A stretch of 64,000 nucleotides of DNA from the IMG/VR virus record IMGVR_UViG_2718217789_000006, one strand, 5' to 3'. This document shows, in pieces, positions 1,246-60,765 of this stretch. A program made the translations under genes and the position numbers. The notes under the pieces are model-generated. The model had not been told where the DNA came from, made no database searches, and saw only the letters and a list, made by a program, of their open reading frames with translations. The number at the start of each line of letters is the position of its first letter. Position 1 is the first letter of the stretch. The DNA is from a virus. Its lineage: Duplodnaviria > Heunggongvirae > Uroviricota > Caudoviricetes.

Positions 1246-1637
1246 AACATACTGATATCCGTGCGGCAGTGCTGGATGCACTGGAGCTGCATGAACACGG
1301 GGCGACGCTGTTTGATGGTCGCCCCGTTGTTTTTGACGAAGAGGATTTTCCGGCCGTCGCGGTTTATCTGACGGATGCAGAGTATACCGGTGAAGAGCTG
1401 GATGCAGATACCTGGCGGGCCACACTGCATATTGAGGTGTTTTTACCGGCACAGGTACCGGATTCGGAGCTTGATCAGTGGATGGAAAGCCGGATTTATC
1501 CGGCGGTGACTGCGATCCCGGCACTGGCAGACCTGATTACGACGATGGTTACGCAGGGCTATGAGTATCGTCGTGATGACGATATGGCGTTATGGAGTTC
1601 TGCGGATCTGACTTATTCCATTACATACGAGATGTGA
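1242..1637 (+). CDS. U: Minor tail protein U (tail terminator)
   Basis: 131 aa, ...[23 protein letters not shown]...[16 protein letters not shown]..., lambda gpU-like; 4-nt overlap with Z. Confidence 0.9.
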
Positions 1638-1644
1638 GGACGAT

Positions 1645-2397
1645 ATGGCAACACCAAATCCCCTTGAGCCGGTAAAAGGTGCCGGTACCACTCTGTGGGT
1701 TTACAACGGCAAGGGTGATGCTTATGCAAACCCGTTGTCAGACGATGACTGGCAGCGACTGGCTAAGGTGAAGGATCTGACGCCGGGCGAGATGACGGCA
1801 GAACCCTACGATGATAACTACCTGGATGATGAAGACGCGGACTGGACCGCGACCGGGCAGGGGCAGAAGTCTGCAGGAGATACCAGTTTTACGCTGGCCT
1901 GGAAACCGGGAGAAGAAGGTCAGAAAGGGCTTATAGGCTGGTTTGAAAGCGGGGATGTGCGGGCCTATAAAATCCGTTTCCCAAATGGCACGGTGGATGT
2001 GTTCCGTGGCTGGGTCAGCAGTATCGGTAAGGCCGTGACGGCGAAAGAAGTGATCACCCGCACGGTGAAAGTCACTAACGTGGGCAAACCTTCCGTGGCG
2101 GAAGAACGCAGCGAAATTACGCCGGCCACTGCAATTAAGGTGACACCGACATCCGGTACGGTGGCAAAAGGGAAAACAACCACCCTGACTGTTTCTTTTG
2201 AGCCGGAAAGTGCAACCGACAAGACGTTCAGAGCGGTTTCCGCCGATCCGTCGAAAGCCACCATTAGTGTGAAAGATATGACAATTACGGTAAACGGCGT
2301 GGCGACAGGTAAGGTGCAGATCCCTGTGGTGAGCGGAAATGGTCAGTTCGCCGCAGTGGCTGAAGTCACCGTTACTGAAGCGGGCGCTGCAGGGTAA
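1645..2397 (+). CDS. V: Major tail tube protein V
   Basis: 250 aa, ...[39 protein letters not shown]...[25 protein letters not shown]..., lambda gpV-like with C-terminal Ig-like region. Confidence 0.95.
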
Positions 2398-2410
2398 ACG
2401 GAGGTAATAC

Positions 2411-2833
2411 ATGTTTCTGAAAACAGAACAATTTGAATATAACGGTGTGTCCGTCACGCTTTCCGAATTGTCTGCGCTGCAGCGGTTTGATTATATAAAG
2501 TTTGTTTCAGACGCAGAACAACAGGAGACAACGAAGCATGATGTCGTGCACATTAACCAGCGATATCTGGAAACGGCATCCCTGCTTGTGGCGATGTCGC
2601 TATGGCATTCCCATTCCCTCAAAGGCACTCTGGCCTCTCCGGAGACAGAGATGCAGCAGATCCGCCGTGAAGTGATGCTGGGATGGCCTGCTGATGCACT
2701 GAATCAGGCAACGAACCGGGTGCTTTATCTTTCAGGTATGCTGGATAACCGGCACGATGCCGATCCTGAACAAACCGGTAAAGCAGAAGCGACTGAGTCG
2801 GTAACATCAAAAAAGCATTCGAAGGCGAGCTGA
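2411..2833 (+). CDS. G: Tail assembly chaperone G
   Basis: 140 aa, MFLKTEQFEYNGVSVTLSELSALQR..., lambda gpG-like; ends just after a slippery heptamer. Confidence 0.9.
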   Translation: MFLKTEQFEYNGVSVTLSELSALQRFDYIKFVSDAEQQETTKHDVVHINQRYLETASLLVAMSLWHSHSLKGTLASPETEMQQIRREVMLGWPADALNQATNRVLYLSGMLDNRHDADPEQTGKAEATESVTSKKHSKAS

Positions 2834-3273
2834 ACTTTGTCCTGAAACTGGCGCGAGAGATGGGGAGACCCGACTGGCGCGCCATGCTTGCCGGGATGAC
2901 ATCCACCGAATATGCCGACTGGCGACGTTTTTACTGCACGCATTATTTTCAGGATACCCAACTGGACGCTCATTTTTCCGGGCTGATGTACGCCGTACTC
3001 AGCCTGTTTTTTGGCGATCCGGATATGCATCCGGCGGATTTCAGTCTGCTTGCTCCAGCGTGTGAGGAAGAGCAGACGGAGATGCCGGACGAGGAAGAAA
3101 TGCTGATGCAGAAAGCGACAGGAGTTGCCGGAGGCGTCCGGTTCGGAGGGGACGGAGGGCGCGATATTTCACCTTCTGCGGATGTGGTGGATGTCAGCGA
3201 GGATGATGTTGCATTAATGATGGCTTCAGCGGGGATTTCCGGAGGTGTGAGATATGTCCCAGCCAGCGGGTGA
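2411..3273 (+). CDS. T: Tail assembly protein G-T, product of programmed -1 ribosomal frameshift
   Basis: T frame (ending 3273) is the -1 frame relative to G and is open upstream of its first ATG through the heptamer A_AAA_AAG at 2809..2815; -1 reading gives ...KKAFEGELNFVLKLAREMGRPDWRAMLAGMTSTEYADWRRFY... Confidence 0.75.
2809..2815 (+). promoter_or_regulatory. Slippery heptamer A_AAA_AAG for the G to G-T -1 frameshift
   Basis: In-frame X_XXY_YYZ motif in the G reading frame at the G/T overlap; lambda uses G_GGA_AAG at the same position. Confidence 0.7.
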
Positions 3274-58971: not shown

Positions 58972-60285
58972 ATGGCAGTAAAGATTTCAGGTGTACTGAA
59001 AGACGGCACAGGAAAACCGGTAGAGAACTGCACCATTCAACTGAAAGCCAGACGGACCAGCAGCACGGTGGTGGTGAACACGGTGGCCTCTGAAAATCCG
59101 GATGAAGCCGGTCGTTACAGCATGGACGTTGAGTACGGTCAGTACAGCGTCATTCTGTTGGTGGAAGGATTCCCGCCGTCACATGCCGGGACTATCACCG
59201 TGTATGAAGATTCTCAACCCGGTACGCTGAATGATTTTCTCGGTGCCATGTCGGAGGATGACGTCCGGCCGGAGGCACTGCGTCGTTTTGAACTGATGGT
59301 GGAAGAAGCGGCGCGTCACGCTGAGGAGGCGAAGAAGAATGCCGGAGAGGCGGAGACGTCCGCGAGGAATGCCGGCATATCAGCCAGTCAGGCAGAAGAG
59401 AGCGCGGCAAATGCTGACACTTCAGCAGGGGATGCATCGGAGTCAGCCCGGCAGGCGGCAGAAAGTGCAGCCGCTGCAAAGCAGTCAGAGGAGGCGTCCT
59501 CGTCCTCGGCCTCTGCGGCCGCTCAAAAAGCCAGTGAGTCATCACAAAGTGCAGCAGATGCTGAGTTGTCAAAAAAGACGGCAGAAAGTGCAGCCGGTAA
59601 TGCAGCCAGGGATGCAACGACCGCAACAGAAAAAGCCCGGGAGTCAGCAGAAAGCGCACAGTCAGCGGAACAAAGCAGGATAGCGGCGGAAGAGGCCGTA
59701 AACCGAATCCCCACGGTGGTGGGGCCTCCCGGGCCAAAGGGGGAACCGGGTCCCGCGGGTCCTCAGGGGCCGAAGGGAGATAAAGGAGAGCGTGGAGACA
59801 CCGGCCCGGCAGGGGCAACCGGTGAAAGGGGACCGGCAGGTGATGCTGGTCCGGCAGGCCCGCAGGGGCCGAAAGGTGACAGGGGAGGGCGGGGAGAGAC
59901 CGGTCTGACGGGAAATGCAGGTCCACAGGGTCCAAAGGGAGATACCGGTGCGGCAGGCCCGGCAGGCCCACAGGGACCGAAAGGAGAAACAGGTGCGGCT
60001 GGCCCGGTGGGGGCAACCGGACCTCAGGGGCCGAAGGGCGACCCGGGGGAGACGCAAATACGGTTCCGTCTGGGGCCGGGAAACATTATTGAGACAAACA
60101 GCCATGGCTGGTTCCCGGATACAGATGGCGCACTCATCACCGGACTGACCTTTCTTGACCCCAAAGATGCCACACGGGTTCAGGGTTTTTTTCAGCATTT
60201 GCAGGTCAGGTTTGGTGACGGGCCGTGGCAGGATGTTAAGGGGCTGGATGAAGTGGGCAGTGATACAGGCAGAACAGGAGAATGA
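58972..60285 (+). CDS. stf: Side tail fibre protein with collagen-like repeats (30 aa longer than copy A)
   Basis: Same N- and C-termini as 12671..13894 with an extra block of Gly-X-Y triplets. Confidence 0.85.
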
Positions 60286-60286
60286 C

Positions 60287-60556
60287 ATGAACATACTAAA
60301 AAAACTTATGCAGCGTCTGTGTGGTTGCGGAAAGCATGATGACCGTGAACACGGGGAGTTACTTACAGCACAGCTGCGACTGGGGCCGGCAGACATCCTG
60401 GAGTCAGATGAGAATGGTATTATCCCGGAGCAGGACAGGGTAATCACGCAGGTGGTGATACTGGATGCGGATAAAAAGCAGATACAGTGCGTGGTAAGAC
60501 CGCTGCAAATCCTGCGTGCTGACGGGACGTGGGAAAATATTGGCGGGATGAAGTAA
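60287..60556 (+). CDS. Hypothetical 89-aa protein downstream of stf
   Basis: Identical to 13896..14165. Confidence 0.5.
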   Translation: MNILKKLMQRLCGCGKHDDREHGELLTAQLRLGPADILESDENGIIPEQDRVITQVVILDADKKQIQCVVRPLQILRADGTWENIGGMK

Positions 60557-60574
60557 CCCGACAGCTTCACAAAA

Positions 60575-60596
60575 CCGGAGTCCGGCTCCGGTTTTT
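60575..60596 (+). terminator. Rho-independent terminator closing the tail-fibre operon
   Basis: CCGGAGTCCGGCTCCGG hairpin followed by TTTTT. Confidence 0.6.
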
Positions 60597-60765
60597 GTGT
60601 TGCAATGTCCGTGGGATATTTGTTAAGTAGATGATAGAGGTGCTAATTCAACAGGGAGATAAATTAATGCCGATAAATCTGACATCTTATTTGGGGTTAC
60701 AGGGGGCGAAAGTTGTCCCGGCAGTTGTTTTTTCTAAAATTTAGTCTTGTTGGGGTAAATGACAT

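Follow-up and report, generated by a model that had tools for sequence, protein, structure and literature searches.

In lambdoid phages the head, tail and cargo modules interchange at homologous boundaries, as expressed in Botstein's modular theory and the work of Hendrix and colleagues, and Hayashi is said to have described in 2001 the prophages Sp11 and Sp12 of strain Sakai as tandem lambdoid elements next to the ydfJ gene. The Sakai lambdoid prophages fall into those with a lambda-type and those with an 'other' organisation of the head genes, they have nearly identical segments in common that are able to recombine, and for Sp10 tandem integration via the attR of the prophage Rac in K-12 was shown experimentally (Asadulghani 2009, PMC2669165). 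In FRIK804, a 47.7-kb deletion between the prophages phi804-9 and phi804-10 occurred through a direct repeat (PMC7430833), where Chen 2013 is cited for spontaneous Sp11-Sp12 deletions in Sakai, and the main text of Fitzgerald 2021 (PMC8743559) reports continuous prophage-mediated rearrangements in strain 9000 and PT21/28. The stretch of DNA considered here, the 64,000-nucleotide virus record IMGVR_UViG_2718217789_000006 (the window), corresponds to Escherichia coli O157:H7 PT21/28 strain 9000 (NZ_CP018252.2, minus strand), with one base different over 64 kb. It contains two direct, paralogous lambda-type tail-gene modules belonging to two different lambdoid prophages, A and B, which lie head to tail at ydfJ. 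The account developed below, according to which prophage B was inserted at the right end of prophage A and the two tail modules have been recombining since, is given a probability of about 0.85 as a whole. The prophages, the tail modules and the repeats at their right ends, which contain a DinI-like gene and an attachment (att) arm, are located as follows:

1-16823, + strand: prophage A, right part, with the late genes from FI on, the cargo and the right att arm; its left part is upstream of the window (Sakai Sp11 alignment, RefSeq annotation)
1626-14161, + strand: tail-module repeat, copy A (self-alignment; Pfam match for every gene)
16337-16823, no strand assigned: right-end repeat copy 1, DinI-like gene and right att arm, at the A/B junction (self-BLAST; Pfam DinI)
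16824-62725, + strand: prophage B, complete, 45.9 kb, with int, xis, early region, lysis cassette, head, tail copy B, NleC and right arm (RefSeq annotation; Pfam)
47935-60552, + strand: tail-module repeat, copy B (self-alignment; Pfam for T and H)
62240-62725, no strand assigned: right-end repeat copy 2, DinI-like gene and att arm, at the B/ydfJ junction (self-BLAST; ydfJ homology)
62726-64000, + strand: ydfJ', the 5'-truncated chromosomal gene broken by the prophage array (RefSeq annotation; homology to prophage-free ydfJ)

Like the Sp11/Sp12 array of Sakai, the array of strain 9000 consists of tandem prophages which share late-gene segments and of which neighbours differ in head type. Prophage A resembles Sakai Sp11 over 16.8 kb at 99.4% and carries the same NleG2-3/6-2/5-2 cargo and DinI/att end: positions 1-16823 give one end-to-end alignment (99.38%) that stops exactly at the att core, where Sakai runs into ydfJ. 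The early region of A was compared with that of Sp11 via the annotation, and the upstream boundary of A (truncated integrase/exonuclease, DinI, IS629/IS256/ISEc8) matches the Sp11/Sp12 boundary in Sakai. Therefore, A is Sp11, its upstream neighbour is homologous to Sp12, and B is a further prophage of 45.9 kb. Whereas in Sakai Sp11 abuts ydfJ, in strain 9000 prophage B, with an intact integrase and NleC, lies in between, and the near-identical pair in the window is Sp11 and B, not Sp11 and Sp12. The original prediction of tandem prophages thus holds for A and B as lambdoid elements, but the array has three members. The third one, the Sp12 homologue, occupies 2878375-2890319 of NZ_CP018252.2, upstream of the window. 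Its end is formed by NleG-family genes, an IS256/ISEc8 cluster and a further copy of the DinI/att arm; its J gene carries a frameshift, and its J-Lom-fibre region shares about 89-90% identity with the two copies in the window.

When the window was compared with itself, as had been proposed as a check on the repeat, self-BLAST displayed both copies. The longest direct repeat spans 3381-13566 and 49681-59866 (99.44% over 10,187 nt, E-value 0) and is flanked by segments of 91.8% (1310-3159 / 47619-49468) and 93.0% identity (13448-14233 / 59848-60625), and a second, separate repeat of 490 bp is found at 16337-16826 / 62240-62728 (97.3%). In a global alignment of the two tail-module blocks, 12,319 of 12,669 columns (97.2%) are identical, and 350 columns tell the copies apart. 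The repeat coordinates of the original prediction were correct to about 50 bp. Its description of the segments as almost base-identical fits the overall value as well as the 7.6 kb from 5872 to 13503, which are identical between the copies save for one extra A in an A-run of copy B (57005-57010), but does not convey that the repeat is a mosaic. Thus, at the T C-terminus/H N-terminus (2961-3394) there are 107 substitutions and 93 indel columns, with an identity of about 45-58%, a patch in H (5120-5218) contains 30 substitutions, and the fibre gene has a 90-nt collagen-repeat indel (13504-13559 in A, 59805-59950 in B).

Of the tail proteins, V, M, L, K, I, Lom and fibre-C are exactly the same in A and B, as is J once the extra A is removed from copy B, but G, which had been predicted to be identical as well, agrees in 138 of 141 residues (three differ). 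For H, 824 of 882 residues are the same and for T 84 of 138, the T of copy B having 101 amino acids, and the fibre-N proteins differ solely by 30 inserted residues of collagen-like G-X-Y repeats, which copy B has and copy A lacks. Collagen-like prophage fibre proteins have been described in O157 (PMC3368898). The two U proteins have merely 79 of 133 residues in common.

Both copies are complete lambda-type siphovirus tail modules with the gene order V-G-T-H-M-L-K-I-J-Lom-fibre, as given below with the Pfam matches of copy A; T and H of copy B were run separately against Pfam, its other tail genes being identical or nearly so to those of A.

1645-2397, + strand: V, copy A (Phage_TTP_12)
2411-2833, + strand: G, copy A (Phage_TAC_2)
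2860-3273, + strand: T, copy A (Phage_tail_T)
3254-5866, + strand: H, copy A (TMP_2 and Tape_meas_lam_C)
5863-6192, + strand: M, copy A (Phage_min_tail)
6192-6890, + strand: L, copy A (Phage_tail_L)
6901-7644, + strand: K, copy A (Prok-JAB and NLPC_P60)
7641-8219, + strand: I, copy A (Lambda_tail_I)
8460-11939, + strand: J, copy A (GpJ domains)
12007-12606, + strand: Lom, copy A (Ail_Lom)
12671-13894, + strand: fibre-N, copy A
13896-14165, + strand: fibre-C, copy A (phage_tail_N and Phage_fiber_C for the fibre)
47954-48706, + strand: V, copy B
48720-49142, + strand: G, copy B
49169-49471, + strand: T, copy B, shorter allele
49521-52166, + strand: H, copy B
up to 54519, + strand: M, L, K and I, copy B
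54760-58240, + strand: J, copy B, split by the extra A
57005-57010, + strand: run of six A within J, copy B (five A in NZ_CP018252.2 and in copy A)
58308-58907, + strand: Lom, copy B
58972-60285, + strand: fibre-N, copy B
60287-60556, + strand: fibre-C, copy B

Two genes of copy B might at first sight be taken for pseudogenes. The shorter T is flagged as incomplete in RefSeq, but probably is not a pseudogene: it retains the full Pfam T domain (1-73/73), and the short allele is found in all B-type orthologues examined. A predicted G/GT slippery site (A_AAA_AAG, at 2809, in the canonical phase) is found in phase in both copies, and a simulated -1 slip would lead to an open G-T fusion in either; the short T is therefore likely, as judged from its sequence, to be a functional variant. 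The J gene of copy B appears frameshifted, being split into open reading frames at 54709-57096 and 56969-58240, because of the extra A in the run at 57005-57010. As this is the sole base by which the window differs from NZ_CP018252.2, lies within an A-run, and makes the query one base longer than every best RefSeq match, a true pseudogene was rejected; the extra A is most probably a PacBio homopolymer error of an earlier assembly version that was later corrected.

With respect to the origin of the array, a 15-bp att core (TGAATTATGGATTTC) is present at both junctions (16809-16823 and 62711-62725), as defined by the identity between the two right ends, which stops at 16823 and 62725, respectively, and by the homology to prophage-free ydfJ, which starts at 62711. 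The A/B junction, which was expected at 16821, does exist, its exact place being 16823/16824. The following features adjoin the two junctions:

14279-16279, + strand: nleG2-3, nleG6-2 and nleG5-2 (Sakai names; ECs_2156/2155/2154), three NleG-family type III secretion system (T3SS) effector genes, the cargo of A (Pfam T3SS_NleG for all three)
16441-16683, - strand: DinI-like gene, prophage A (Pfam DinI)
16861-18156, - strand: int of prophage B (Pfam integrase)
18176-18427, - strand: xis of prophage B (Pfam excisionase)
60986-61972, + strand: nleC, T3SS effector zinc metalloprotease, the cargo of B (Pfam Peptidase_M85, E = 8e-113; RefSeq annotation)
62343-62585, - strand: DinI-like gene, prophage B (right-end repeat copy 2)

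The right arm of A, with the three NleG genes, DinI and the att core, abuts the integrase (stop at 16861) and excisionase of B, both of which are intact. In strain 10671 and in Sakai, prophage A directly abuts ydfJ, which corresponds to the state before insertion of B, and the A/ydfJ junction of 10671 is base-identical to the B/ydfJ junction of the window. In turn, B-type phages with NleC occur alone at ydfJ in other backgrounds, e.g., in 13E0780. Of 5,426 complete genomes, just 30 contain the A/B junction, each belonging to strain 9000 or the Z series, compared to 152 genomes with NleC-DinI-ydfJ and 297 with NleGx3-DinI(-ydfJ). The core, the adjacent integrase and the empty site in relatives together point to site-specific integration into the att site that the resident prophage carries as the probable origin of the tandem array. 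In the simplest history, A and B would each have brought a related tail module from a common lambdoid gene pool, and phage B would have integrated by means of its own integrase at the att core kept at the right end of Sp11 in the PT21/28 lineage. As in the case of Sp10 and Rac, the incoming phage would thus have used the att core at the right end of the resident, resulting in a head-to-tail array with a repeated core. The two cases differ in the site, which is ydfJ and not Rac, and in the phages involved, and the integration of B is deduced from sequence. In K-12, the ydfJ site is that of the Qin prophage.

It is the variation of the two copies among close relatives that points to ongoing exchange. 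The main text of PMC8743559 describes ten field PT21/28 strains, sequenced for their diversity in pulsed-field gel electrophoresis (PFGE), which are fewer than 70 core-genome single nucleotide polymorphisms (SNPs) apart; therefore, mutation would be expected to yield less than one difference per 12.6 kb. However, after copies A and B had been fetched from four further PT21/28 strains (Z1815, Z866, Z1626 and Z903), the B copies of the PT21/28 strains compared were found to differ pairwise at 26 to 244 columns, in clean tracts, and strains 9000, Z866 and Z1626 have one and the same copy A. The longest stretch over which A and B are identical extends from 5872 to 13503 in strain 9000, from 3416 to 14098 in Z1815, from 9435 to 13503 in Z866, from 9681 to 13503 in Z1626 and from 10563 to 13005 in Z903, and the start of identity thus shifts from 3.4 kb to 10.6 kb. 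The tracts in copy B alternate between A-type, B-type and S-type alleles, S being a third prophage, the tail of which is matched by part of the B copy of Z903, and in Z1815 copy A has the longer fibre allele of B. At about 6.5-9.5 kb, the B-orthologue of the outgroup 13E0780 shares the 'B' alleles of Z866 and Z1626, and the identity with A seen there in strain 9000 is therefore derived.

The copies in these genomes accordingly display blocks of identity, boundaries that move between close relatives and donor alleles within the same genome, as is characteristic of gene conversion and concerted evolution, and repeated gene conversion among the paralogous tail modules best explains the identical block of 7.6 kb. 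Homologous recombination, mediated by RecA and/or phage recombinases, would repeatedly have overwritten stretches of one copy by the other, probably mainly in the direction from A to B, and have left this block in strain 9000. That copy A stays the same in 9000, Z866 and Z1626 although B varies suggests that the transfer may have been non-reciprocal, in contrast to a double crossover.

That the repeats can drive deletion and cargo exchange, as had been anticipated, is borne out by natural isolates. When a deletion recombinant between the A and B tails was built in silico and this synthetic 17-kb query searched in all complete E. coli genomes, the best matches were Z1830 to Z1833, four PT21/28 isolates from one farm. 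At ydfJ, Z1830 has the lysis and head genes of A (same protein accessions), a V gene split by an element of the insertion sequence (IS) family IS3, and B-type G, T, H, L, K, I and fibre genes followed by NleC-DinI-ydfJ; up to and including U the joint is of the A type, from G on of the B type. The interval of about 46 kb in between, which comprises part of a tail, the three NleG genes, DinI, att, the early region and head of B and again part of a tail, was not lost but sits, with its orientation kept, at a distance of about 500 kb in the tail module of prophage S, the TccP/EspJ carrier at serU/mtfA. Mapping of the Z1830 copies against the un-rearranged prophage S of Z1766 placed both S joints at one position, at about 6.9-7.0 kb in A coordinates and at the L/K boundary, and the genome size is essentially unchanged (5,518,869 versus 5,516,496 bp). 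The coinciding joints and the unchanged size are therefore the signature of a single reciprocal insertion of what would be a circular intermediate. The hybrid joint, the moved interval and the position of the joints within homology mark the event in Z1830-Z1833 as a deletion and relocation by homologous recombination between direct repeats: a crossover between the A and B tails would release a circle of about 46 kb, which would then enter the S tail by one reciprocal homologous crossover, and in this farm lineage such a circle appears to have inserted into the TccP/EspJ prophage at serU. More generally, the same homology would allow for removal of the 46-kb interval, for re-pairing of head and cargo and for moves into other module-bearing prophages.

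Two other routes to the Z1830 structure were considered. An inversion, which would have been broken within the fibre gene, was rejected, since the three modules are all directly oriented and the two S joints coincide at about 6.9-7.0 kb. Duplication followed by two deletions via unequal sister-chromatid exchange was judged less likely than the circle, since it would take three events plus a coincidence of the joints. The recombinant query also gave matches at 95-96% in other serotypes, which are independent phages, and in the lineage this search of the complete E. coli genomes yielded no pure deletion derivative, i.e., A head, tail, NleC and ydfJ with the interval lost. The joint of Z1830-Z1833 resembles the FRIK804 deletion in that direct repeats of neighbouring prophages recombine and about one prophage length is removed. 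However, the FRIK804 repeat consists of 822 bp in an antirepressor gene, compared to a substrate of 12.6 kb of tail module here, and unlike in FRIK804 the excised interval is retained, within another prophage. Cargo exchange is further documented by G5295, which has a B-type head together with the three NleG genes of Sp11 at ydfJ, and by other serotypes in which lambda-type FII, Z and U occur with NleC; across E. coli, all four combinations of head and cargo are found at ydfJ.

A different kind of breakpoint was noted in Z885 (NZ_CP062763.1, 2327587-2346312), where prophage B is matched up to query position 18726, corresponding to window position 62725 and exactly to the att core; therefore, the right end of B is not beside ydfJ in this strain, and a rearrangement with its breakpoint at the DinI/att repeat rather than in the tail module is likely. 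IS elements within tail genes, namely IS1203/IS629 inside the fibre-C gene of copy A in Z903 and the element in V of Z1830, point to an ongoing decay of the tails beside recombination.

Three rival explanations were weighed. The first one holds that only one tail module or prophage exists and that the second copy arose by mis-assembly or duplication of a repeat. To warn of an assembly hazard, as the original prediction did, was fair, a 12.6-kb repeat with copies about 46 kb apart being a classic one, and copy B does contain one probable consensus error in the window, the homopolymer A in J. However, the unique flanks differ on both sides of each copy, the 350 distinguishing columns include the divergent T/H junction of about 430 bp and the 90-nt indel, the A/B junction recurs in 30 independently assembled complete genomes, and the published PT21/28 structures were validated by PFGE and optical mapping according to the main text of the source study (PMC8743559); moreover, the occurrence of A alone (10671, Sakai) or of a B-type phage alone (13E0780) at ydfJ in relatives shows both to be real phages. 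Assembly duplication or collapse was consequently rejected, its probability being close to nil, and the only probable error is the single base in J of copy B. It is also improbable, though not to that degree, that phage B simply arrived with this tail as a product of lambdoid mosaicism and that no exchange took place after integration. B-type phages at ydfJ in other serotypes do have a tail that is 95-97% similar, and lambdoid phages share modules (PMC2669165), yet inheritance of this kind fails to account for 26 to 244 differences in copy B and for allele-switching tracts between strains fewer than 70 core SNPs apart, or for a boundary of identity that moves from 3.4 kb to 10.6 kb.

A slightly better, but still small, chance is left to the possibility that the tandem repeat is real and the tract differences are artefacts of consensus building or polishing. 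The pipeline used read self-correction and short-read Pilon, each genome contains at least 14 paralogous tail places, and one homopolymer error is demonstrable. On the other hand, at least eight assemblies among the matches listed (strain 9000 plus seven Z strains, the majority of which derive from trials with 9000) share an identical top score over 20 kb of this region and serve as a control for assembly noise; at least five of the seven were recovered from cattle trials with strain 9000, as stated in the main text of PMC8743559. Also, four farm isolates have the Z1830 structure in common, the tracts are long, clean and match alleles of other real copies (such as the S-type I and J in copy B of Z903 and in Z1830), reading frames are intact and protein accessions recur across strains. 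Gene conversion within a tandem array therefore remains the preferred account, against which the following points weigh. The detailed comparison covers five A copies and six B copies, from assemblies made with PBcR self-correction, Quiver and Pilon, which can in principle blur near-identical repeats. The polarity of conversion is taken from one B-outgroup for part of the tract, and in the H region, where 'A' alleles are found in the outgroups, a more complex history makes polarity less clear. Finally, because the copy linked to the B head and the copy at ydfJ in Z1830 both carry B-type G-T-H, the circle model needs a progenitor with complete identity of its A and B tails between G and Lom, or else later conversion.

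In contrast to their tails, A and B differ in the modules preceding them, as had been predicted from lambda FI/FII genes in A and a ClpP-protease/capsid fusion, a DUF2190-like protein and divergent Z and U in B, all of which Pfam and the RefSeq annotation confirm:

344-697, + strand: FII, specific to A (Pfam Phage_attach)
712-1245, + strand: Z, specific to A (Pfam Minor_tail_Z)
1242-1637, + strand: U, specific to A (Pfam Phage_tail_U)
39945-47946, + strand: head module specific to B, beginning with DUF1441 (Pfam; RefSeq annotation)
40418-42541, + strand: gpA-type terminase, B (Pfam; RefSeq annotation)
42750-44252, + strand: lambda-family portal, B (Pfam; RefSeq annotation)
44242-46221, + strand: ClpP-protease/major-capsid fusion, B (Pfam CLP_protease, residues 17-176; Phage_capsid_4, 369-656)
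46309-46635, + strand: cement protein, formerly DUF2190, B (Pfam Phage_cement_2)
46628-46909, + strand: Gifsy-2-family connector, B (Pfam PF13856 Gifsy-2)
46912-47535, + strand: Z, B, divergent (Pfam; RefSeq annotation)
47548-47946, + strand: U, B, divergent (Pfam; RefSeq annotation)

Prophage A carries the lambda-type head/connector set Nu1-A-W-B-C(S49)-D-E-FI-FII before Z and U. The genes from Nu1 to E (Nu1, A, W, portal, S49 peptidase, decoration protein and capsid) lie just upstream of the window and are assigned by RefSeq annotation, as is FI, and FII, Z and U are backed by Pfam; between A and B, the head-tail joining genes at 344-1637 and their counterparts are about 40-65% identical in nucleotide sequence. 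The head of B is of the Gifsy-2-like type with a ClpP-protease/major-capsid fusion in a single reading frame, followed by the cement protein and the connector, and it is equated with the 'other' organisation of Sakai Sp6, Sp9, Sp10 and Sp12 on the basis of the description in PMC2669165.

The early region of prophage B harbours further genes known from the annotation: a type II restriction-modification pair consisting of a DNA cytosine methyltransferase and an NgoMIV-family endonuclease (28286-30296), a gene for the epoxyqueuosine reductase QueH just upstream of it (27436-28101), and a second DNA methyltransferase gene (33570-34628). Judged by annotation, the restriction-modification and methyltransferase genes would represent defence or epigenetic cargo unrelated to the repeat. 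A gene for an exonuclease of 798 amino acids, a candidate prophage recombinase, is located at 18500-20896. An Rfam search found the small RNA STnc100 (34708-34908, 148 bits) between the methyltransferase gene and a DUF6645 gene as well as a borderline match to the sok antitoxin (28169-28349, 61 bits versus a cut-off of 59), which extends into the 5' part of the cytosine methyltransferase gene and has no annotated hok in its vicinity; both are irrelevant to the repeat. A scan for tRNAs found none. The DUF6645 protein (648 amino acids, 35132-37078) is encoded downstream of the antiterminator Q gene (32174-32995) and upstream of the lysis cassette, the position at which Stx phages carry stx, and its homologue in prophage A has an internal stop in strain 9000.

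Taken together, the finding is already known O157 prophage biology, and the conversion tracts and the relocation in Z1830-Z1833 are new examples of it, not new biology. Compared to lambdoid mosaicism nothing essential differs, the pair in the window being a recent, intragenomic instance. Fitzgerald 2021 studied the same strain set and, in its main text (PMC8743559), the same principle, i.e., homologous recombination between prophage repeats of more than 10 kb that yields structural variants, the variants there being megabase inversions and duplications of 140-220 kb. In that main text no mention was found of gene conversion, tail modules or a relocation of about 46 kb, and Z1830-Z1833 appear just in the strain table; likewise, tract-level conversion between Sp11 and the extra prophage and the Z1830-Z1833 relocation were not found in the main text of the papers compared. 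Current understanding is thus unchanged and agrees with Asadulghani 2009, the FRIK804 study, the main text of Fitzgerald 2021, and Chen 2013 as cited in PMC7430833.

Near-identical modules on a 10-kb scale in tandem prophages are therefore to be regarded as a normal property of O157:H7 genomes and not as an anomaly. Through crossover and the copying of patches, the tail, host-range (J, fibre) and effector-cargo regions evolve about a thousandfold faster than mutation alters the core genome. Outbreak typing by SNPs, the typing of prophages and assembly from short reads are confounded by this. As a more tentative idea, held at somewhat less than even odds, the tail module might act as a portable homology cassette that confers mobility on prophages independently of integrases, the circle of about 46 kb re-entering any module-bearing prophage by a single crossover; such a circle would effectively be a complete hybrid phage genome with the early region and head of B, one tail and the NleG cargo of A. 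Together with frequent gene conversion this would, if true, shuffle the effector cargo and the genes for receptor binding (J, fibre) between about 14 loci within the time that a farm outbreak takes. Virulence cargo (NleG, NleC, TccP/EspJ) is in any case re-paired with other backbones, and this alters which phage can mobilise which effector.

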